Sequence record: NC_028894.1
Length of the DNA stretch: 64,000 nt
Reading direction: 5' to 3' (one strand)
Source of the DNA: Escherichia phage vB_EcoM_VR20
In this document: positions 53,398-64,000 of the stretch, piece by piece
Numbering within the stretch: position 1 is the first letter of the stretch
Layout: every line of letters starts with the position of its first letter
The notes under the pieces: model-generated
Database searches by the model: none
Told to the model about the DNA's origin: nothing
Seen by the model: only the letters and a program-made list of their open reading frames with translations
Program-made: the position numbers and the translations under genes

Positions 53398-56300
53398 ATG
53401 GCCGATATTTTAAAACCAGCATTCAGAGCAACATCCGGTCTCGATGCTGCTGGTGAGAAAGTCATTAATGTCGCGAAAGCTGATTACTCAGTTTTGTCAG
53501 ACGGCGTTAACGTAGATTTCTTTATAGAAGAAAACACAGTTCAACAATATGATGCAACGCGCGGATACAAAAAGAACTTCGCAGTTATTAATGATAACCG
53601 TATTTGGGTTGCTCAGCGTGATATTGATGCTCCAGCAGGAGCATTTACCCCTCAGTATTGGTTAGCAACCCGTACTGACCCTAAATGGGAAACTGTTGCA
53701 TCTCCAACTCGTCAGCTTAATTCAGGTGAATTTATCGCAGTCGACTCAGCTGCAAGCTTTACCACATTTACATTGCCTCCGAACCCGACTGATGGTGATA
53801 CCATCGTTATTAAAGATATCGGCGGCAATACTGGTTATAATGAAATCAAAGTTCAATCGAGCAACGTGCCTGGTCAAGGTAACCAAAAAATTGTTCGTTT
53901 TGGTAATCAGTATTCAGAAGTTTTAATTACCAAACCGTTCTCTTATAATATGCTTATTTTCTCCAACCGCCTTTGGCAGTTCTGGGAAGCAGGTAACGAA
54001 GAACGCGGAATAAGAATTGAACCAAGCTCTGGTAAATATCGAACTCAAGCATCAGATTTTATTATGCGTCATTATACGACTGCAGAAAAAATTACATTTG
54101 TTCTTCCTAAGTATGCTAACCAAGGTGATATTGTCAAATCGGTAGACATAGATGGATTAGGGCCATTATATCACCTGGATGTTGAAACGTTTGACGAGTC
54201 AAGCTCTCTGGGTAAACAGGGCCAACACAGTATGGAATTCCGTACAACTGGTGATGGCTTCTTCGTGTATAACGCAGTTGAAAAACTGTGGGTAACCTGG
54301 GACGGTGATAACAAAACTCGTTTGCGTGTAATTCGTGACAATGTAAAATTGTTACCAAACGAAAGTATCATCGTGTTCGGTAATGATAACAACACCTCGC
54401 AGACAATTAACATTGACCTTCCAACAGGTGTTCGTCAGGGTGATGTTGTTAAGATTGCTCTGAACTATCTCCGCAAGGCACAGACGGTTAATATTAGAGC
54501 TTCGGCTACTGATAAAATTGCATCTTCTGTTCAGTTGCTTCAGTTCCCGAAACGTTCGGAATATCCGCCGGACACTGAATGGGTATTTGTTGACTCTTTG
54601 ACTTTCAATGGTAATATAAGTTATACTCCGGTTATTGAATTAAGTTACATGGAAGATACGGTTAATAACATTAACTACTGGGTTGTTGCTCAGAACGTTC
54701 CGACTATTGAGCGTGTTGACTCGAAGGATGATTTGACCCGTGCTCGTCTGGGTGTTATTGCATTAGCTAACCAGGCTCAGGCTAACGTTGACCATGAAAA
54801 TAACCCTGAAAAAGAATTAGCAATTACCCCGCAGACTTTGGCTAACCGTGTGGCTACTGAATCACGTCGTGGTATTGCACGAATTGCTAACACTGCCCAG
54901 GTGAACCAGGATACGACTTTTGCTTTCCAGGACGACATCATCATCTCTCCGAAAAAGTTAAACGAACGTACAGCTACAGAAACACGTCGTGGTGTCGCAG
55001 AAATCGCCACACAACAAGAAACTGATGCAGGCACTGATGATACTACCATCATCACTCCACGCAAGCTACAAGCTCGTCAGGGCTCAGAAAGCCTATCTGG
55101 TATCGTTAAGTATGTTCCTACTACCGGGACTACTCCAGCGACTTCTAGAGCAACTATAGGTACTAACGTTTATAATAAAAATACAACTACTCTGGTAATT
55201 TCTCCGAAAGCTTTGGACCAATATAAAGCTGACCAGAACAACCAAGGTGCTGTATATCTGGCTACTCAGTCAGAAGTTAACGCGGGGGCAACAAATACAG
55301 GATTCAGTAACTCGGCAGTGACTCCTGAAACATTAGGTGCCCGCAGAGCAACAGATTCAAACCATGGTTTAATCGAGATTGCAACTCAAGCAGAAGTTAA
55401 TACAGGAACCGATTATACCAGAGCTGTGACTCCTAAAACGTTGAATGACCGTAAAGCAACAGAATCATTATCCGGCATAGCCGAGATTGCTACGCAATCA
55501 GAATTTGATAGTGGTACTGATGATACTCGTATTGCAACGCCATTAAAAATTAAAACTAGACTGAATGATACTGCTCGTACTTCTGTTATTGCAGCAAGTG
55601 GTTTAGTAGAAACAGGGACGCTCTGGGACCATTATACGCTGAATATTCTTGAAGCAAATGAGACTCAACGTGGCACCGCAAGACTGGCTACTCAACTTGA
55701 AGTTAATACTGGTACTGACGATAAAACAATCGTTACTCCGCTTAAGTTGATGTCGAAAAAAGCCACAGAAGGCACCGAAGGTATTGTTCGCATCGCTACT
55801 CGTGCAGAAACTATCGCAGGAACAAGTTCAATCCTGGCTGTTTCTCCGGTTAGTCTGAAATGGATTGCACAGTCCGAACCAACATGGGCAGCAACCACGA
55901 CGACCCGCGGCTTTGCTAAGATGTCTGAAGGCGCAATTACTTTTGTCGGTAATGCAACTGCAGGTTCGACCCAGGCTCTTGACCTGTACGAGAAAAATAG
56001 CTATGCTATCTCTCCGTATGAGTTAAACAAAACCCTTGGTAACTTCCTGCCGCGTTTGGCTAAAGCAGCAGACTCGGATAAACTGGATAACCTGGATAGC
56101 ACGCAGTTCATTCGTCGTGATATTGACCAAATCGTTGAAGGTACATTAACCCTTAGAAAGAACATAAGAGTTGATGGTCAGCTGGCGACTGGTGGTACCG
56201 GTGAATTTGGCGGCTCGTTGGCGGCTAACTCCACATTTACTATACGCAACACAGGAACTCCGACCCGTATCGTTTTCGAAAAAGGTCCTGCCTCCGGTGC

Positions 56301-57297
56301 AAACCCGGTTCAGTCAATGAGCATCCGTGTATGGGGTAACCAGTATGGTGGCGGTTCGGATACGACTCGTTCTACCGTGTTTGAAGTCGGTGATGAAACA
56401 TCTAACCACTTTTATTCGCAACGGAATAATCTTGGTAATATTACTTTCAGCATAAACGGTACAGTTCAACCGATTAACGTTAATGCATCCGGAACATTGA
56501 ATGCTAATGGCGCGGCAACATTTGGACGTTCGGTGACAGCACAAGGTGAATTTATAACCTATAGTGCAAACGCATTTAGAGCTATTAATGGTAATTACGG
56601 ATTCTTTATTCGTAACGATAATGCTAATATCTATTTTATGCTAACTAATTCAGGTGACCAGACCGGTGGTTTTAATGGATTACGTCCTTTAGCTATTAAT
56701 AATGCATCTGGCCAGGTTACAATTGGCGAAGGATTAATTATTGCTAAAGGAGCTACTATAAATTCAGGTGGTTTAACTGTTAACTCAAGAATTCGTTCTC
56801 AAGGTGCTAAACCCGCTGACCTTTATTCTAGAAAACCTGATGCAGATAATACAGGCTTCTGGTCTGTTGAAGTTAATGACTCTGCGACATATAATCAGTT
56901 CCCGGGTTATTTCAAAATGGTTGAAAAGACCAATGAAGTAACTGGCCTGCCTTATTTGGAGCGTGGTGAAGAAGTTAAATCACCGGGTACATTAACTCAG
57001 TTTGGTAATACGCTGAATTCACTCTATCAAGACTGGATTACTTATCCGAATACGGCTAATGCCAGCACGACCCGCTGGACTCGTACATGGCAGCAGAACA
57101 AAAACGCATGGTCTGGTTTTGTTCAGGTCTTTGATGGTGGTAACCCGCCGCAGCCGTCGGATATTGGTGCATTGCCTGCTGATAACGCTTCGATGAGTAA
57201 CCTGACCATCAGGGATTGGTTAAGAATCGGTAACGTACGTATTGTTCCGGACCCAGTAACTAAATCCGTTAAATTCGAATGGATTGATACACCATAA
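53398..57297 (+). CDS. 34: long tail fibre proximal subunit
   Basis: 1299 aa against 1289 in T4; internal repeats. Confidence 0.95.
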   Translation: MADILKPAFRATSGLDAAGEKVINVAKADYSVLSDGVNVDFFIEENTVQQYDATRGYKKNFAVINDNRIWVAQRDIDAPAGAFTPQYWLATRTDPKWETVASPTRQLNSGEFIAVDSAASFTTFTLPPNPTDGDTIVIKDIGGNTGYNEIKVQSSNVPGQGNQKIVRFGNQYSEVLITKPFSYNMLIFSNRLWQFWEAGNEERGIRIEPSSGKYRTQASDFIMRHYTTAEKITFVLPKYANQGDIVKSVDIDGLGPLYHLDVETFDESSSLGKQGQHSMEFRTTGDGFFVYNAVEKLWVTWDGDNKTRLRVIRDNVKLLPNESIIVFGNDNNTSQTINIDLPTGVRQGDVVKIALNYLRKAQTVNIRASATDKIASSVQLLQFPKRSEYPPDTEWVFVDSLTFNGNISYTPVIELSYMEDTVNNINYWVVAQNVPTIERVDSKDDLTRARLGVIALANQAQANVDHENNPEKELAITPQTLANRVATESRRGIARIANTAQVNQDTTFAFQDDIIISPKKLNERTATETRRGVAEIATQQETDAGTDDTTIITPRKLQARQGSESLSGIVKYVPTTGTTPATSRATIGTNVYNKNTTTLVISPKALDQYKADQNNQGAVYLATQSEVNAGATNTGFSNSAVTPETLGARRATDSNHGLIEIATQAEVNTGTDYTRAVTPKTLNDRKATESLSGIAEIATQSEFDSGTDDTRIATPLKIKTRLNDTARTSVIAASGLVETGTLWDHYTLNILEANETQRGTARLATQLEVNTGTDDKTIVTPLKLMSKKATEGTEGIVRIATRAETIAGTSSILAVSPVSLKWIAQSEPTWAATTTTRGFAKMSEGAITFVGNATAGSTQALDLYEKNSYAISPYELNKTLGNFLPRLAKAADSDKLDNLDSTQFIRRDIDQIVEGTLTLRKNIRVDGQLATGGTGEFGGSLAANSTFTIRNTGTPTRIVFEKGPASGANPVQSMSIRVWGNQYGGGSDTTRSTVFEVGDETSNHFYSQRNNLGNITFSINGTVQPINVNASGTLNANGAATFGRSVTAQGEFITYSANAFRAINGNYGFFIRNDNANIYFMLTNSGDQTGGFNGLRPLAINNASGQVTIGEGLIIAKGATINSGGLTVNSRIRSQGAKPADLYSRKPDADNTGFWSVEVNDSATYNQFPGYFKMVEKTNEVTGLPYLERGEEVKSPGTLTQFGNTLNSLYQDWITYPNTANASTTRWTRTWQQNKNAWSGFVQVFDGGNPPQPSDIGALPADNASMSNLTIRDWLRIGNVRIVPDPVTKSVKFEWIDTP

Positions 57298-57305
57298 GAG
57301 GTATT

Positions 57306-58442
57306 ATGGAAAGATTTATGGCTGAATTTGGACAGGGATATGTCCATGTTCCCGTGCTTTCTGAAAATAACGCAGTAAGATATAAATTGTCGATTGCTGG
57401 GACTTGTACCAAATCGCCAAACTATCCCTACGTTAAGTTTCAAGATGAGGCCTTCGGGCCTCAGACATTCCAGAATGGATTAAACCTTATTGAGATTGAC
57501 CCAGTAACAAATACAATCACTGCAACCAAAAACTATGGTTTCACAAAAGACTATGATGTCATTTCACAGGCCTTTGTGACTTATATTAATTCCATCCCAG
57601 CGGGTAGGATTGTTTGTTTGATATCGCAGGGAAAATTGAATGCTTCCCAAACTTTAATTGATTGGTTCAGAACACATGGCTCGACTGCATTTCCGGATAA
57701 GTGGTTGATTGACCAAGTTGATACTTCGTATTCGGCTTTTTATATCTCTGGTCGAAATGCAATCGTTAAAGAGCATGTGCTATATAATGACGGGGTAACT
57801 GTTGAGGATGTATTGACTCCATTGGAAATGGTGTACGACGACTTCGCTGATGTGGGTGGCACAGGATTCCCTCTGCGCATCGTGGAAGACGGAAACACAT
57901 ATTATAGTAATAGTACACAAGAAATAAAACGCTTCCCCACAGACTCCCCCATCACTCCTGCGGCCGATTATAATATGGCCCCTGGTGATACTTTTTATCT
58001 GAAGTTTCAGCTGACATATGACCAGGCACTTAAAGACCTTGGAACAACTCAGATGTCTGTTCGATTCTTTAGTGGTCAGACGATGATTCAGTCAAACGAT
58101 TATGATATCCCATCTACAGGTCAAGCAAGTCCACCGGCTGGCGCATGGATGACGTTTGAACGTTATGTAGTTGTTCCACCGAATGCTGATGGATTTACAT
58201 TGTATGCAAGGAAGACCGTTGCTGCTGGACAAGGTGGAGTAAGGAATATTTTCTTTACAGAAATCGCGCGACAAGAAACACAAGCTAAATCTGCAGAAAT
58301 CGGTGTCAACGGCATAAGAATGGTTGTAGCTGGAGAACCGGGAAATCTTGGTAATGTCATTGCACAATTGAATGATAAAAATGCAACTAAAGCAAGTCAA
58401 TCTGGATTTGTATTTGCTGCAGAATTCCGTGAAAAAGAATAA
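57306..58442 (+). CDS. 35: long tail fibre hinge protein
   Basis: 378 aa; synteny. Confidence 0.9.
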   Translation: MERFMAEFGQGYVHVPVLSENNAVRYKLSIAGTCTKSPNYPYVKFQDEAFGPQTFQNGLNLIEIDPVTNTITATKNYGFTKDYDVISQAFVTYINSIPAGRIVCLISQGKLNASQTLIDWFRTHGSTAFPDKWLIDQVDTSYSAFYISGRNAIVKEHVLYNDGVTVEDVLTPLEMVYDDFADVGGTGFPLRIVEDGNTYYSNSTQEIKRFPTDSPITPAADYNMAPGDTFYLKFQLTYDQALKDLGTTQMSVRFFSGQTMIQSNDYDIPSTGQASPPAGAWMTFERYVVVPPNADGFTLYARKTVAAGQGGVRNIFFTEIARQETQAKSAEIGVNGIRMVVAGEPGNLGNVIAQLNDKNATKASQSGFVFAAEFREKE

Positions 58443-58498: not shown

Positions 58499-59158
58499 AT
58501 GGCCGATTTAAGAGTAGGCTCAACGACTGGGGGCTCAGTTATCTGGCACCAGGGCAACTTTCCGTTGACGCCAGTAAGCAATGATTTATTTTACAAAACA
58601 TATAAAGTATATACAGAATTCAATAAACCGCAAGCAGCAGATAACGACTTTGTTTCTAAAGCTAATGGTGGGAATTATTTAAGTACAGTAAACTTTGATA
58701 AAGACTTACAATTTAAAGATTCCGATGGGTATTGGGTTAAATTGGGTAGAAAAACCAATACATCCCCAATGTCTGCTACATATTCTTTCTCATTTAGAAT
58801 GAGCAAAGGTATGGGTCTTGAGACATCGGATGGTACACCGTTTGTAATTTTCGACCCGACTACTGTTATAGGTGCAAACCGTCTTACTGTAATGGGTGAT
58901 ATCCTTGGTCGTCAAATTAAAGACGAATCAGGTCGAGTGTTTTCTCCAGGGAATACTCCGTCAAAAGCACAAGTTGGATTAAGTGATGTGGATAACGCAA
59001 AACAGGTCCAAATAAATAATAGTAACATACAATCTATGGCTGGCGTTCTTTCAGCCCCGAATTTCATATCTAGGAACCCAGGTACATTGAACGAACACGT
59101 TCCTCGTATTGACCAGGTTGTTCTTAGAGGCACATCTGAAGATTTTGGATATTATTAA
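58499..59158 (+). CDS. 36: long tail fibre distal connector
   Basis: 219 aa; synteny. Confidence 0.9.
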   Translation: MADLRVGSTTGGSVIWHQGNFPLTPVSNDLFYKTYKVYTEFNKPQAADNDFVSKANGGNYLSTVNFDKDLQFKDSDGYWVKLGRKTNTSPMSATYSFSFRMSKGMGLETSDGTPFVIFDPTTVIGANRLTVMGDILGRQIKDESGRVFSPGNTPSKAQVGLSDVDNAKQVQINNSNIQSMAGVLSAPNFISRNPGTLNEHVPRIDQVVLRGTSEDFGYY

Positions 59159-59166
59159 GAGGCATT

Positions 59167-62100
59167 ATGGCTACTTTAAAATCAATACAATTTAAAAGAA
59201 GTAAAATAGCAGGAGCCAAGCCTACTGCAGCTCAGTTAGATGAAGGTGAACTGGCTATTAACTTACGCGACCGCACGATTTATACCAAAACCGACCAGAA
59301 CCAGATTATTGACCTGGGTTTTGCTAAAGGTGGACAGGTTGATGGTGATATTCTCCAGAACGGCACATTTAACCTCAATGGTAATATGTTCGTTTACGCT
59401 GGTAAGTATATTGAATTTTTACCTAAAACTGCCGGTAATGGTGCCTGGGCTAACCAGCACTTGAATAAAGCTCCTATCTTTGCAGATTTAAGTTCAACTA
59501 CCTCAGTATCAGAATATCATCCTCTGATTAAGCAACGTTATAAAGACGGTACTTTTTCTGCTGGTACATTAGTAAACGAAGGTAGTTTTAAATTCCATTA
59601 TATTGATGAAACCGGTGATTCGAAATATTGGACTTTTAATCGAAATGGTAATTTCATCGTAGATTCCGGTAGTATTGAAGTTCGTACCGGTAATATTTCT
59701 GCTTCAGGCAATATAAACTCTGCTAATGGTATTATCACCGGTCCTGAAATTGTTACTAAAAATATTAATTTTAGTACAAAAACATTTGTAGCTAATGCTA
59801 ACATTGGATATGATTGGGTTTCTTTACCTACTTGGGTTTATAACCCACCGGCTGATGGTTCTGATAATACTACTAACGGTTTAAACTATTTGCGTAAATT
59901 ACGTGCATCAAGTGCATCAAGTATTTTCCATGAAATTGCCGATTGCCGAAAAGGCAAGCCACAAGAAATTTCTTGGTGGACCGGTGTAGGTCCGGCATCT
60001 TTCCAATGGGCGTTTGATACTAGTGGGCGTATTACTGCAGGTAAATCTATTTCTGTTGGTCTTCCTGATAGTGGTACAAACGGCCGTTATCCTTTAGATT
60101 CTGCGATTTCTATAGGTATTGCCATCGGTGATAACGATACAGGTATTAAATGGGTCCGTGACGGCGTTATCGATTTAATGGCCAATGGTATTTCATCTGC
60201 AACTATTCTTAATAACGGTATTAATAGTACTAAAAAATTGATGGTTGGATATAGTCGAGATTCTGGTTCTACTTGGGATTTCCCAAATAACAACCAAGCA
60301 ATGTTTACTGCTCGTACTGATATTGATGGCAATAATAACGGTGATGGTCAGACTCATATCGGTTATAACAGCAATTCTAAAATGTATCACTATTTCCGTG
60401 GCACGGGTCGTATGGCTGTTGGTATGGCCGAAGGGCTTATTGTTGAACCAGGAATTTTAGATATTAAAACCGGTTCTAATAGCGTTGCTATTAGAGCGGA
60501 CGGAACAATTAACTCCACCCAGCGTATTTCTATGCGTACGGGCTTGTTTTTAAATGGTGATGATAATACTAATGCTTTATCGTTTAAAGCGCCTTCTGGT
60601 GTTGATGGTACTAAAACTATCAATTGGGACGCAGGTATTCGTAACGGTCAAAACAAAAACACTGTAACACTTAAAGCTTGGGGTAACTCCTTTAACGCAG
60701 GCGGCGGTAACAGAGAAACTGTATTTGAAGTATCAGATTCACAAGGTTATTATTTTTATGCCCAGCGTACAAATCCGGCCGTTGCCGGAGGTATAGGACC
60801 TGTCAACTTTAAGTTTAACGGAACTGTTGAAACAGGCCATATCATAGGCCTTGGTGATATTACTGCTTCCGGTACAGGTTCTTTTGGTGGCAATGTTACC
60901 ATGACTAATGGCCTGTTTGTCCAAGGTGGTTCTTCTATTACTGGCCAAGTTAAAATTGGTGGAACGGCAGATGCATTAAGAATTTGGAATGCTGAATACG
61001 GTGCTATTTTCCGTCGTTCAGAAACAGCATTACATATTATCCCGACTAATAAAGATGCCGGTGAAAGCGGTGGAATAAGTAATCTTCGCCCATTAAGTAT
61101 TGGTCTTGATAATGGTATGGTACAAATGCGCCATTCTGTCACGATAGGCGATAATGGTACTGGCGGTAATATGATTACTGTGGACAACGATAGCAAACTT
61201 GTTGTTGTTACTAGTAATAGTCGCATTTCTCCTAATTTCCGTATGCAGATAGGACAAGCATCGTATATTGATGCTGAATGTACTGACACAGTTCGCCCTG
61301 CGGGAGCTGGTTCTTTTGCTTCACAGAATAATGAAAACGTCCGTGCTCCGTTCTATATGAATATTGATAGAGCTGATACTGGTACATATGTTCCGATTTT
61401 GAAACAACGTTATGTTCAAGGCAACGGCTGCTATTCATTAGGGACTTTAATTAATAATGGTAACTTTAGAGTTCATTATCATGAAGGCGGAGATAACGGT
61501 TCTTCAGGTCCACAGACTGCTGATTTTGGATGGGAATTTATTAAAAACGGTGATTTTATTTCACCTCGCGATTTAATAGCAGGCAAAGTCAGATTTGATA
61601 GAAATGGTAACATCACGGGTGGTTCTGGTAATTTTGCTAACTTGAACACAACTTTAGACCGCAAAGTTACCACGGGCTGGATTAATTATGTTGATAGTGG
61701 TTGGTATAAATTAGCAACAGTAACTATGCCTCAGGGTGTGGCTACGGCCCAATTTAAAATTACCGGTGGTTCTGGATTTAACGTTGGTATTTTCAGACAA
61801 GCAACAATTAATGAAATTGTATTACGCTCGGGTAATAATACACCTAAAGGAATTAATGGCGTTTTATGGCAGCGTGAAACGGATGCTATTAAAGACATAG
61901 CATATATTAATATCTCTGGCGATGAATATGATGTTTATATTAATTGTGGCACCTATTTAAATAGACTTACAATCGAATATAGCACGTCAGAAAATGCTTC
62001 AGTAGTAGTTCATGGATTATACGGGCCTACCCAATCACCAATAGCAGAACTTCCTGTAGACAGTGTTAAAGGACGCGTTTTTAAACTTCTTAACAATAGC

Positions 62101-63135
62101 TCAGGTGTTTTTGATGCAGGTAGTTCTAATATTTCTACAAACGCTACATTTGTTGCTAATACAACCATTGGATTCCGTCACAAATCTAATGGTGACGAAA
62201 GCGGTTCCGCTGCTACTTTGTTTTATAATGATGGTACTACGTTCCACATATTATTAACAGATAAAAATACCGATGCTGATAAAACTAAAGCCTCAGGTTC
62301 TTATAATAGCTTGAGACCTTTTTCTATTAATATTGCTTCCGGTAAAGTAACTATTTCAAACTCTATGAGCGTTTCTGGGTTATCAGAGTTTTATAATGGC
62401 CTTAACATCAAAAATAATGGAAGCATTAACTTTGATAAATCAGGTACTAACCCGAGAAACATGCGTATATTCCATGCTGGCGATGCTTCTCGTGGAAACC
62501 GTATTGAAATAGCTGATGACAGTAGTTACTTGGTTTATTTTCAACGTTATGCAGCCGGCGGCATTGTTTGTTCATTTAACAACTCTGATATGACCGGGGT
62601 GCAAACTCTTAACGTCGAGACCAAAATTAATACCCCACAAATTGGCTCATTTGGCGTTAATACGACCAACGCACTTGGTGGTAACTCGATTGCAATCGGT
62701 GATACTGACACTGGTATTAAACAGAGTGGTGATGGTATTTTTGATATTATTACTAATGCCGCCCGCCGCATGAGATTCCAGTCAGGTGATACTTATTCGG
62801 ATATGAATATTAACGCCCCGAACGTTTATATTCGTTCTGATATTCGTTTGAAATCTAACTTCAAACCTATTGAAAATGCTCTTGACAAGGTTGAACAACT
62901 AGACGGTTTAATCTACGATAAAGCAGACTACATTGGCGGTGAAGTTGTTCATACCGAAGCAGGTGTTATTGCACAGAGTTTAGAAAAAGTATTACCTGAA
63001 GCTATTCGTGAAGTTGACGACATTAAAGGTAACAAAGTTCTTACCGTTTCAACCCAGGCACAAGTTGCTCTGTTAATTGAAGCAGTTAAAACTCTGTCGG
63101 CTAAAGTTAAAGAACTTGAAGCAAAACTTAATTAA
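59167..63135 (+). CDS. 37: long tail fibre distal subunit, T2-type with C-terminal intramolecular chaperone domain
   Basis: 1322 aa; C-terminal IRSDIRLKSN...coiled-coil tail resembles self-cleaving chaperone domains. Confidence 0.95.
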   Translation: MATLKSIQFKRSKIAGAKPTAAQLDEGELAINLRDRTIYTKTDQNQIIDLGFAKGGQVDGDILQNGTFNLNGNMFVYAGKYIEFLPKTAGNGAWANQHLNKAPIFADLSSTTSVSEYHPLIKQRYKDGTFSAGTLVNEGSFKFHYIDETGDSKYWTFNRNGNFIVDSGSIEVRTGNISASGNINSANGIITGPEIVTKNINFSTKTFVANANIGYDWVSLPTWVYNPPADGSDNTTNGLNYLRKLRASSASSIFHEIADCRKGKPQEISWWTGVGPASFQWAFDTSGRITAGKSISVGLPDSGTNGRYPLDSAISIGIAIGDNDTGIKWVRDGVIDLMANGISSATILNNGINSTKKLMVGYSRDSGSTWDFPNNNQAMFTARTDIDGNNNGDGQTHIGYNSNSKMYHYFRGTGRMAVGMAEGLIVEPGILDIKTGSNSVAIRADGTINSTQRISMRTGLFLNGDDNTNALSFKAPSGVDGTKTINWDAGIRNGQNKNTVTLKAWGNSFNAGGGNRETVFEVSDSQGYYFYAQRTNPAVAGGIGPVNFKFNGTVETGHIIGLGDITASGTGSFGGNVTMTNGLFVQGGSSITGQVKIGGTADALRIWNAEYGAIFRRSETALHIIPTNKDAGESGGISNLRPLSIGLDNGMVQMRHSVTIGDNGTGGNMITVDNDSKLVVVTSNSRISPNFRMQIGQASYIDAECTDTVRPAGAGSFASQNNENVRAPFYMNIDRADTGTYVPILKQRYVQGNGCYSLGTLINNGNFRVHYHEGGDNGSSGPQTADFGWEFIKNGDFISPRDLIAGKVRFDRNGNITGGSGNFANLNTTLDRKVTTGWINYVDSGWYKLATVTMPQGVATAQFKITGGSGFNVGIFRQATINEIVLRSGNNTPKGINGVLWQRETDAIKDIAYINISGDEYDVYINCGTYLNRLTIEYSTSENASVVVHGLYGPTQSPIAELPVDSVKGRVFKLLNNSSGVFDAGSSNISTNATFVANTTIGFRHKSNGDESGSAATLFYNDGTTFHILLTDKNTDADKTKASGSYNSLRPFSINIASGKVTISNSMSVSGLSEFYNGLNIKNNGSINFDKSGTNPRNMRIFHAGDASRGNRIEIADDSSYLVYFQRYAAGGIVCSFNNSDMTGVQTLNVETKINTPQIGSFGVNTTNALGGNSIAIGDTDTGIKQSGDGIFDIITNAARRMRFQSGDTYSDMNINAPNVYIRSDIRLKSNFKPIENALDKVEQLDGLIYDKADYIGGEVVHTEAGVIAQSLEKVLPEAIREVDDIKGNKVLTVSTQAQVALLIEAVKTLSAKVKELEAKLN

Positions 63136-63136
63136 C

Positions 63137-63156
63137 AAGAGGGCTTCGGCCCTCTA
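63137..63156 (+). terminator. hairpin AGAGGGC-TTCG-GCCCTCT
   Basis: Between genes 37 and 38; followed by TAAGGA then the gene 38 ATG. Confidence 0.5.
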
Positions 63157-63166
63157 AGGATTTTTA

Positions 63167-63955
63167 ATGGCAATTGTAGGTGTTCCTGGTTGGATTGGAC
63201 AATCTGCCGTAGATGAAACGGGACAACGTTGGATGGATGCCGCTATGCGCGATGTGCGAGTTGCAGTACCCGGTTGGATGGGGTCGATGGCAGGACAATC
63301 AAAAGAAATTTATCTATCTATAGGGGCTAATAACTCTTATGATAGAAACTCCCTTATTAACTGGATGAGGGCTCAAGGTGGTGCGCCTGTAGTTATTACA
63401 ATCACCGGTAACTTAGTATCCAATAGCACCGGTAACGCTTGTTTGGAATTTCCTAGCAATCTTCCTAACGCGTATATTCAACTTATCATTAATAGCGGTG
63501 TGACTGTTTATGGCCGAGGAGGTAATGGTTCTACTAATGGTTCGGCAGGTGGAAACGGTGGTACAGCTATCCATAACGCAGCCGGAACTAAACTCCGTAT
63601 TCGTAATAACGGCGCTATTGCCGGTGGTGGCGGTGGCGGTGGCGCAGTATCATTGCAAAATAGCTACCCGACTAATGGTACATGCGGTGGTGGTGGTGGT
63701 AGACCATTTGGCGTAGGTGGCAAAATAGGCTCTGACGCTATATTGTCCGGTTCGAATGCGTCTTTAACAGCTGCCGGTACAGGTGGTGCTACAGTCCAAT
63801 ATGGTGGAGGTAATGGCGGTAACGTTGGAGCTGGCGGTGGACGAGGATGGGGCAAAAATGTTTATACCTCTGCAGGTGGCTCAGCTGGTGCTGCTGTCAC
63901 TGGCAATGCTCCTAACTGGCAAAACGTAGGAACTATTTACGGCTCAAGAGTCTAG
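63167..63955 (+). CDS. 38: tail fibre tip adhesin, T2-type gp38 with glycine-rich motifs
   Basis: 262 aa; N-terminus MAIVGVPGWIGQSAV and the GGGGGG blocks match T2 gp38, not the T4 chaperone-type gp38. Confidence 0.9.
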   Translation: MAIVGVPGWIGQSAVDETGQRWMDAAMRDVRVAVPGWMGSMAGQSKEIYLSIGANNSYDRNSLINWMRAQGGAPVVITITGNLVSNSTGNACLEFPSNLPNAYIQLIINSGVTVYGRGGNGSTNGSAGGNGGTAIHNAAGTKLRIRNNGAIAGGGGGGGAVSLQNSYPTNGTCGGGGGRPFGVGGKIGSDAILSGSNASLTAAGTGGATVQYGGGNGGNVGAGGGRGWGKNVYTSAGGSAGAAVTGNAPNWQNVGTIYGSRV

Positions 63956-63966
63956 TGCAAAAGCAT

Positions 63967-63974
63967 TATAAATA
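63967..63974 (+). promoter_or_regulatory. late promoter TATAAATA upstream of the next gene
   Basis: Exact box followed by AAGGAG and an ATG at 63993. Confidence 0.6.
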
Positions 63975-63992: not shown

Positions 63993-64000
63993 ATGGAACC
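63993..64000 (+). CDS. 5' end of next gene (holin t in T4 order), truncated by window
   Basis: ATG 7 nt after AAGGAG; only 8 nt inside the window. Confidence 0.3.

Follow-up and report, generated by a model that had tools for sequence, protein, structure and literature searches.

The 3′ end of gene 37 and the whole of gene 38 in the Gaprivervirus phage vB_EcoM_VR20 form, with a probability of roughly 0.9, the module that recognises the receptor at the distal end of a T2-type long tail fibre. We examined this locus in a window of 64,000 nucleotides (the whole stretch of phage DNA that was analysed), and the ends originally proposed for the module, 62836 and 63955, proved to be natural ones: namely, the Ser1224 codon of gene 37, where the Peptidase_S74 match also starts, begins at base 62836, and the stop codon of gene 38 ends at base 63955 (Table 1). 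By exact protein look-up, gp37 and gp38 are identical to AIZ02319.1 (long tail fiber protein) and AIZ02320.1 (long tail fiber adhesin) of Escherichia phage vB_EcoM_VR20. A new-allele reading, based on a best full-length DNA match of 82% in the phage collection, was hence rejected, both proteins being existing entries of this phage.

Both proteins are thus already in GenBank/RefSeq under correct names, and the interpretation is already known; indeed, the processing of T2 gp37 (1986), the GRM/HVS design of the adhesin (2011) and the S16 structure (2018) have been published. In terms of discovery, the locus carries little weight, given that the mechanism is textbook for T2-like phages. What is new here is the mosaic composition of the locus, the likely use of FadL and/or OmpF as the receptor, and two private residues in gp38.

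Table 1. Features of the gene 37/38 region, in window positions
Feature	Position	Strand	Size or residues	Basis
Gene 37, long tail fibre distal subunit	59167..63135	+	1322 aa	ORF list
Last beta-helical segment before the predicted cleavage site	62668..62835	+	gp37 1168-1223	
C-terminal intramolecular chaperone / putative autocleavage domain	62836..63132	+	gp37 1224-1322	Pfam PF13884
Heptad-patterned helix	63043..63132	+	last 30 residues of gp37	I/L/V at 7/9 a/d positions
Intercistronic C(UUCG)G tetraloop hairpin, AGAGGGC-UUCG-GCCCUCU	63138..63155	+		MFE -13.4 kcal/mol, z -2.2
Gene 38 Shine-Dalgarno AAGGA, 6 nt 5′ of ATG	63156..63160	+		sequence; conserved in alignment
Gene 38, T2-type receptor-recognising adhesin	63167..63955	+	262 aa	ORF list
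N-terminal attachment domain	63167..63292	+	gp38 1-42	Pfam Gp38_N
Glycine-rich (polyglycine-II sandwich) specificity region	63512..63886	+	gp38 116-240	Gly runs
HVS1		+	gp38 120-130	approximate border, from gp38 alignment
HVS2	63644-63685	+	gp38 160-173	approximate border, from gp38 alignment
HVS3	63722-63802	+	gp38 186-212	approximate border, from gp38 alignment
HVS4		+	gp38 221-240	approximate border, from gp38 alignment
Conserved C-terminal motif GAAVTGNAPNWQNVGTIYGSRV	63887..63952	+	gp38 241-262	nearly invariant, both alignments

The gp38 adhesin

The assignment of gp38 to the T2/S16-type adhesins was borne out by family profiles and by a crystallised homologue. The Pfam model GP38 (PF05268 and PF21721 were tested as the adhesin pair) was matched over its entire length (profile positions 1-218 of 218) with 264.3 bits and an E-value of 1e-78, and so was Gp38_N (positions 1-40 of 40) with 58.4 bits, the curated cutoff being 25 bits for either model; scores as high as these are not expected by chance. 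Furthermore, PHROG 2056, annotated as "tail fiber protein; host specificity", was hit with an E-value of 3e-97, and residues 8-260 of gp38 were aligned with gp38 in the S16 structure (6F45_D; E = 1.5e-43). The N-terminus, called T2-type in the original prediction, is the part matched by Gp38_N. The protein as a whole is 92% identical to T2 gp38, free of gaps, and its N-terminal domain has three tryptophan residues (W9, W22 and W37), which are invariant in both of our gp38 alignments and fall tryptophan to tryptophan on those of S16 gp38.

In the description of the S16 structure, these N-terminal tryptophans dock into pockets of gp37. The last beta-helical segment of gp37 in vB_EcoM_VR20 (residues 1168-1223) aligns with the crystallised tip of S16 gp37 (6F45_A, residues 21-~90); it is identical to that of CJ20 in 55 of 56 residues and to that of T2 in 38 of 56, and by analogy with S16 it is presumed to be the docking surface for gp38. 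As shown for relatives, gp38 would then be present as a monomer at the virion tip and bind an outer-membrane receptor.

Poly-glycine blocks separated by variable segments had also been anticipated, and such a GRM/HVS layout is indeed seen. Glycine accounts for 35% of residues 116-245, with runs of seven (153-159), five (174-178) and twice three (213-215 and 223-225), and the divergence among T2-type, CJ20-type and T6-type (ime09) adhesins is confined to the segments between the glycine runs. This architecture, in which glycine-rich motifs alternate with variable segments and are followed by a conserved C-terminal extremity, has been defined for the adhesins (PMC3157838). Residue D190 of T2 gp38 has been placed in HVS3, and the residues distinguishing SV76 from T2, 161 and 207, are in HVS2 and HVS3, respectively. 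Published work has established that the stretches between glycine motifs set the receptor choice; in that general sense, the proposal that the variable segments determine the host range holds, but within the allele class to which the gp38 of vB_EcoM_VR20 belongs, the segments are strongly conserved.

Allele relationships and the probable receptor

The gp38 of vB_EcoM_VR20 falls into one 90% cluster together with those of T2, SV76, IME08 and others, and its protein identity to the sampled relatives is at least 90%. At synonymous sites in codons 43-262, T2 is the nearest of the phages compared (dS 0.175), while the DNA for gp38 residues 1-42 and for the tip and chaperone domain of gp37 is 92-97% identical to that of CJ20. 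Also, gp37 is composed of CJ20-like and dhaeg-like segments, and its identity to T2 gp37 is 53% in residues 1-1081 and 71% in residues 1147-1321. Judged from these comparisons, the gene 37/38 locus is a mosaic of differing origins. Natural exchange points are mapped at the border of the gp38 attachment domain and just 5′ of the gp37 tip, and they could guide adhesin swaps across genera.

When gp38 was compared with the Dhakavirus copies by the Nei-Gojobori method, dN/dS was 0.05-0.08 at dS of ~0.85-1.0, and the comparison with T2 and SV76 gave dN/dS of 0.20-0.28. No gene-wide diversifying selection on gp38 was seen with this method and the few sequences compared, as dN/dS never exceeded 1, and positive selection was accordingly rejected at the level of the whole gene. 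The low dN/dS against the Dhakavirus copies, at protein identities of at least 90%, argues for a conserved binding function.

T2 uses FadL/OmpF as receptors, and because gp38 shares the 90% cluster with T2 gp38, the receptor of gp38 is most probably FadL and/or OmpF. The call between FadL and OmpF is nonetheless soft because of V161 and of A208 and G214 (T208A and A214G), the latter two being private to vB_EcoM_VR20 among the alleles compared; at position 161, T2 has Ala and SV76 has Thr. Indeed, SV76, whose only differences from T2 are a Thr for Ala at 161 and an Asp for Gly at 207, is reported to depend on OmpF/FhuA/LPS and not on FadL, and a single change in HVS3, Q206L, switches OmpF to OmpW in RB51/RB68. 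The receptor choice in the gp38 family can therefore flip through one or two HVS substitutions. These precedents, in combination with V161, A208 and G214, lend some weight to a rather unlikely alternative, in which the module is as described above but its receptor is not the FadL of T2 but OmpF only or another porin, with residues 161 and ~207-214 being responsible. Set against it are the strong purifying selection on the gp38 allele and the agreement of V161, Q164, T172, A191 and V210 with the consensus of those cluster members that belong to Dhakavirus. For Dhakavirus phages, FadL is predicted; this FadL assignment is a phylogenetic prediction and thus a hypothesis rather than an experiment. 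In the literature, we found no receptor or fibre experiments on vB_EcoM_VR20.

It is improbable, in our estimate, that the receptor preference of the VR20 adhesin differs from that of T2 (for instance, OmpF-only or a different porin). A T2-derived specificity domain may then have been combined with a Gaprivervirus attachment domain and carry V161 as well as T208A and A214G at the border between HVS3 and a glycine motif; if true, this would be a further natural receptor switch by one or two residues in gp38. The practical use of the locus is confined to engineering and in host-range prediction, where the allele predicts FadL/OmpF dependence.

The C-terminal domain of gp37 and fibre assembly

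The C-terminus of gp37 was expected to be an intramolecular chaperone domain of the self-cleaving class, and both a family match and a catalytic motif support this. Pfam Peptidase_S74 (PF13884) matches residues 1224-1280 of the 1322 residues with 55.3 bits and an E-value of 8e-15 (curated cutoff, 22 bits), and the sequence IRSDIRLKSN (residues 1222-1231, nucleotides 62830-62859) carries the SDxxxK motif, in which Ser1224 (codon 62836-62838) and Lys1229 (codon 62851-62853) form a Ser-Lys dyad with the canonical Ser+5 spacing; cleavage is predicted at the R1223|S1224 bond. The same spacing is found in the dyads defined for endoNF (S911/K916) and MyRF (S587/K592). In phmmer searches against the PDB, the SDxxxK motif was aligned with "SDRRIK" of S16 gp37 and "SDERLK" of another tail fibre, 8jov. 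When the chaperone domain alone was used as the query, however, S16 gp37 was the sole significant match, with the MyRF ICA being borderline (E = 0.017) and endoNF, T5 and GA-1 not being retrieved; the assignment to S74 is therefore based on the dyad and the Pfam profile. Furthermore, a C-terminal piece of 109 residues (nucleotides 62806-63135) has matches at the very C-terminal end of 33 PHROG tail-fibre families.

The length given for gp37, 1322 residues as compared with 1026 in the T4 record, was correct, and the "about 95" residues said to follow the motif are 91 when counted after IRSDIRLKSN and 99 when the count starts at Ser1224, so that the estimate was a fair one. This tail had been described as coiled-coil-like, which fits the last ~30 residues with their heptad register but not the rest of the chaperone domain, which is globular. 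From the heptad pattern, the last 30 residues are presumed to be the trimerising coiled coil of the domain; in the homologous MyRF ICA domain, trimerisation is driven by a C-terminal triple coiled coil.

Alternatively, the C-terminal domain of gp37 might be an inactive S74 relic that is kept in the mature fibre in a structural or binding role. A single-sequence AlphaFold2 model of residues 1200-1322 was all-helical but of low confidence (mean pLDDT 59.6) and thus uninformative on this point. We consider such retention very improbable, nonetheless, given the strict conservation of the dyad and the motif around it in five relatives, among them T2, whose gp37 is reported to be proteolytically processed at the C-terminus (Drexler 1986, as cited in PMC3157838), and given that S16 gp38 sits at the base of the gp37 beta-helix, a place that, on steric grounds, a retained chaperone domain would presumably take up. 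T2, IME341, AnYang, dhaeg and CJ20 all have an identical VYIRSDIRLKSN and a domain of 99 residues. Cleavage of T2-type gp37 followed by capping with gp38 has been reported, and from T2 and S16 we infer autoproteolytic release of the domain in vB_EcoM_VR20.

[quoted passage not shown] After this folding, the Ser1224-Lys1229 dyad would cleave the R1223|S1224 bond in each chain, so that the chaperone domain would depart. The exposed trimeric tip of gp37 would then be capped by a single gp38 (a stoichiometry of 3:1), with W9, W22 and W37 of its N-terminal three-helix domain inserted into three equivalent pockets. The C-terminal half of gp38 would fold into a polyglycine-II sandwich, and its distal loops, HVS1-4, would bind an outer-membrane protein of E. 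coli.

Known relatives and gene arrangement

Among known systems, T2 shares with vB_EcoM_VR20 the gene order 36-37-38-t, a 99-residue S74 domain (76 of 99 residues identical, with an identical VYIRSDIRLKSN), a gp38 of equal length and the UUCG hairpin between genes 37 and 38. The two phages differ in the backbone, which is Tequatrovirus in T2 and Gaprivervirus here, in the gp37 shaft with its 53% identity, and in 21 gp38 substitutions, six of which are in the attachment domain and eleven in residues 116-262; the latter include V161, Q164 and T172 in HVS2 and A191, A203, A208 and V210 in HVS3. The S16 fibre (PDB 6F45) is similar in the tip and chaperone domain of gp37 (E = 7e-11) as well as in gp38, where the three docking tryptophans, the G7/G8 central glycine helix, GGGGGRP and the C-terminal motif are kept. 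In contrast, S16 infects Salmonella, its gp38 has 249 residues with HVS loops of different sequence and length, and in its gp37 the stretch from the GDxDTG motif to the cleavage site is longer by ~16 residues. More distant are endoNF (K1F), the T5 L-shaped tail fibre, GA-1 gp12 and MyRF, in which a domain with a Ser-Lys dyad five residues apart and a terminal heptad helix is also C-terminal on a trimeric beta-helical fibre, the Pfam score of gp37 being above the family threshold; direct sequence matches to these proteins are weak, as noted above, and the released tip in vB_EcoM_VR20 would be capped by a separate adhesin instead of being the functional end itself.

T4 is alike in the position of the locus, in the homologous N-terminal and central parts of gp37 and in a Gp34_trimer-like repeat, but its gp37 lacks S74 and ends in the Collar and Phage_fiber receptor-binding domains, and its gp38 (183 residues) is unrelated in sequence. 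An alignment of gp38 with the T4-type chaperone had been named as the observation that would speak against an adhesin; because BLASTP against T4 gp38 gave a best E-value of 2.4 over 25 residues and hence no similarity, this objection falls away. While gene 38 occupies the position of T4 gene 38 and some homologue records, including that of ime09, are still named "distal long tail fiber assembly catalyst", it is scarcely credible that gp38 is a T4-type assembly chaperone outside the virion and that gp37 itself bears the receptor-binding tip, given the lack of similarity to T4 gp38, the full-length matches to the adhesin models and the S16 adhesin structure, and a gp37 that has the S74 domain at its end in place of the T4-type tip domains.

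Gene 38 of vB_EcoM_VR20 lies directly 3′ of the S74-terminated gene 37 and 5′ of the holin gene t, an arrangement syntenic with T2, IME341, AnYang, dhaeg and CJ20. The late promoter TATAAATA is absent between 58466 and 63967; it occurs at 63967 and is followed by the ATG of gene t at 63994. Scans of the whole window for tRNA and Rfam families gave zero matches. The stem and loop of the hairpin between genes 37 and 38 are kept in T2, ime09, dhaeg, CJ20 and T4, and variants are found in IME341 and AnYang.

Gene order and expression signals

A T2-type receptor-recognition module had been predicted at 62836-63955, in which gp37 (the distal subunit of the long tail fiber) ends in an intramolecular chaperone domain and gp38 serves as a glycine-rich adhesin. 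This observation was confirmed, and its interpretation as a T2-type receptor module was supported. Indeed, the Ser1224 codon of gp37 starts at 62836, and gene 38 ends, stop codon included, at 63955; also, gp37 has 1322 aa versus 1026 aa in T4, as originally predicted. By exact-sequence look-up, gp37 is AIZ02319.1/YP_009207440.1 (named "long tail fiber protein" in GenBank/RefSeq) and gp38 is AIZ02320.1/YP_009207441.1 ("long tail fiber adhesin"); the VR20 tip thus belongs to a well-characterized system and has been annotated before. Gaprivervirus phages (e.g., vB_EcoM_RZ, VR26, and CJ20) share ~95% identity with the backbone of the window. For the module itself, the best full-length DNA match was only 82%, because vB_EcoM_VR20 is apparently absent from the "phages" BLAST collection.

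Features of the fiber locus, with the closest relative of each mosaic segment
Feature	Position (nt)	Remarks
Late promoter consensus TATAAATA (T4-type)	53360	just upstream of gene 34
Gene 34	53398..57297	upstream of gene 37
Gene 35	57306..58442	upstream of gene 37
Late promoter consensus TATAAATA (T4-type)	58466	just upstream of gene 36
Gene 36	58499..59158	upstream of gene 37
Gene 37	59167..63135	+ strand; 1322 aa; ORF list and sequence
Hairpin with C(UUCG)G tetraloop	63138-63155	37-38 spacer; AGAGGGC-UUCG-GCCCUCU; -13.4 kcal/mol; z -2.2
Gene 38	63167..63955	+ strand; 262 aa; ORF list and sequence
Late promoter consensus TATAAATA (T4-type)	63967	just upstream of gene t
Holin gene t	63994 (ATG)	downstream of gene 38; synteny with T2, IME341, AnYang, dhaeg, CJ20
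Mosaic: gene 37	~60100-61550	CJ20, 81-99% (mostly above 89%)
Mosaic: gene 37	~61640-62450	dhaeg (Dhakavirus), 83-91%
Mosaic: gp37 tip, chaperone domain, spacer, gp38 attachment domain	~62690-63250	CJ20 (Gaprivervirus), 94-100%
Mosaic: gp38 residues 43-262	~63290-63955	T2, 89-97% (Dhakaviruses 77-87%)

No TATAAATA consensus was found before gene 37 or gene 38, which suggests that genes 36-37-38 form a single late transcript (operon). Genes 37 and 38 are 31 nt apart, and in this spacer the hairpin is directly followed on its 3' side by AAGGA, the Shine-Dalgarno sequence of gene 38, six nucleotides before the ATG. This hairpin is kept in T2, ime09, dhaeg, CJ20, and also T4, even though gene 38 of T4 is unrelated; UUCG hairpins of this sort are well known between adjacent genes of T4. 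Scans of the whole 64-kb window detected neither tRNA genes nor Rfam families at the gathering threshold.

The C-terminal domain of gp37

Residues 1224-1280 of gp37 matched Pfam Peptidase_S74 ("chaperone of endosialidase") with 55.3 bits (cutoff, 22). The same domain is present in T2 gp37 at 1243-1300, whereas T4 gp37 is without it and has C-terminal Collar and Phage_fiber domains in its place. The IRSDIRLKSN motif, from which a self-cleaving domain had been proposed, is indeed found at residues 1222-1231 and contains Ser1224; with Lys1229, this residue has the Ser+5 spacing of the catalytic dyads in endosialidase endoNF (S911/K916) and MyRF (S587/K592). [quoted passage not shown] Furthermore, VYIRSDIRLKSN is identical in gp37 of the five relatives compared (T2, IME341, AnYang, dhaeg, and CJ20), all of which have a chaperone domain of 99 residues with identities to that of VR20 ranging from 76/99 (T2) to 99/99 (CJ20).

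A clean heptad pattern was observed in the last 30 residues, with I/L/V at seven of the nine a/d positions, and would fit the C-terminal triple coiled coil driving trimerization in the S74/ICA domain family. The 109-residue C-terminal piece (nt 62806-63135) matched the extreme C-terminus of 33 PHROG tail-fiber families, a spread that would be expected of a portable folding module. A single-sequence AlphaFold2 model of the chaperone domain (pLDDT, 59.6) was too poor for judging the fold. T2-type gp37 is described as undergoing C-terminal proteolytic processing followed by gp38 capping (Drexler et al. 1986, as cited in PMC3157838), and by analogy, we infer that gp37 of VR20 is cleaved as well.

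Elsewhere in gene 37, a 70-nt direct repeat (60118-60187 and 62689-62758, 70% identity) encodes IAIGDxDTGIK..DG..D...N twice, around residues 318 and 1175. This motif was aligned with the S16 gp37 tip and, at both sites, with T2 gp37, and the repeat may represent a conserved structural element or mark a site of recombination. Also, gp37 residues 514-645 (60706-61101) matched Pfam Gp34_trimer, the trimerization domain of the proximal fiber subunit, in two stretches with 42.6 bits; T2 gp37 gave this match as well, while T4 gp37 was below the cutoff. In the hinge protein gp35 (378 aa), residues 57-129 matched Pfam ILEI (38.5 bits vs. cutoff 27), the "interleukin-like EMT inducer" (FAM3-type) domain, a family name unexpected for a phage fiber hinge.

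The gp38 adhesin

The Pfam models GP38 and Gp38_N (264 and 58 bits, respectively) together covered the whole of gp38, and residues 8-260 were aligned with the S16 adhesin crystal structure (6F45_D, E 1.5e-43); a GFP-gp38 fusion entry (9v85) was also aligned. T2 gp38 is 92% identical with zero gaps. With T4 gp38, no similarity could be detected (E 2.4), which argues against a T4-type chaperone, and the T2 type assigned in the original prediction thus stands. S16 gp38 docks into the gp37 trimer by three tryptophans (Dunne et al. 2018), the counterparts of which in VR20 (W9, W22, and W37) are invariant across all alignments.

Glycine runs were mapped at residues 153-159 (G7), 174-178 (G5), 213-215, and 223-225, and glycine accounts for 35% of residues 116-245. 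When T2-type, CJ20-type, and T6-type (ime09) alleles were aligned, their differences mostly clustered between these runs, in agreement with the predicted poly-glycine blocks parted by variable segments. This layout is that of alternating glycine-rich motifs and variable segments (GRM/HVS; Trojet et al. 2011) and corresponds to the polyglycine-II sandwich described by Dunne et al. (2018).

Mosaic origin and predicted receptor of the gp38 allele

Sliding 150-nt identity across the fiber locus mapped a mosaic, one junction of which (~63250-63300) falls at the boundary of the attachment domain in gp38 (residues 1-42). For codons 43-262 (63293-63952), Nei-Gojobori dS was 0.175 in the comparison with T2, where dN/dS was 0.20; for five Dhakavirus copies, dS was 0.85-1.04 and dN/dS 0.05-0.08. 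The highest identity being to T2, together with the low dS against T2, indicates that the specificity parts of VR20 and T2 gp38 have a recent common ancestor across the genus boundary, and the unit of the gp37 tip (the segment just before the predicted cleavage site), chaperone domain, and attachment domain travels apart from that part. Modular exchange of this kind has been described in the literature (Trojet et al. 2011 among others). Given that the T2-type allele retains at least 90% protein identity among phages with synonymous divergence near saturation, the low dN/dS indicates that the "hypervariable" segments are under strong purifying selection within the allele class; such conservation argues for a conserved receptor.

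The 90% identity cluster of gp38 has 25 members, including T2, SV76, IME08, IME341, AnYang, dhaeg, dhabil, and CLB_P2. FadL and OmpF are the receptors of T2, and FadL is assigned to Dhakavirus phages by prediction. Alternatively, the VR20 adhesin might prefer a receptor other than those of T2, and we keep this as a rival: gp38 differs from that of T2 by 21 substitutions, six of which are in the attachment domain and 11 in residues 116-262 (VR20-to-T2: G125S, V161A, Q164K, T172S, A191S, A203D, A208T, V210F, G214A, A239E, and S242A), and A208 and G214 are unique to VR20 among the 14 cluster members compared. SV76, reported as needing OmpF/FhuA/LPS but not FadL, has T at residue 161 in HVS2 (~160-173) versus A in T2, and the second SV76-T2 difference, G207D, adjoins A208 of VR20. 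FadL and/or OmpF is predicted as the VR20 receptor; the confidence is moderate, since single changes in HVS3 (~186-212) can switch the receptor in other alleles, as Q206L does from OmpF to OmpW. Another single HVS3 change, D190G in T2, confers escape from a receptor-masking defense, and D190 is kept in VR20 gp38.
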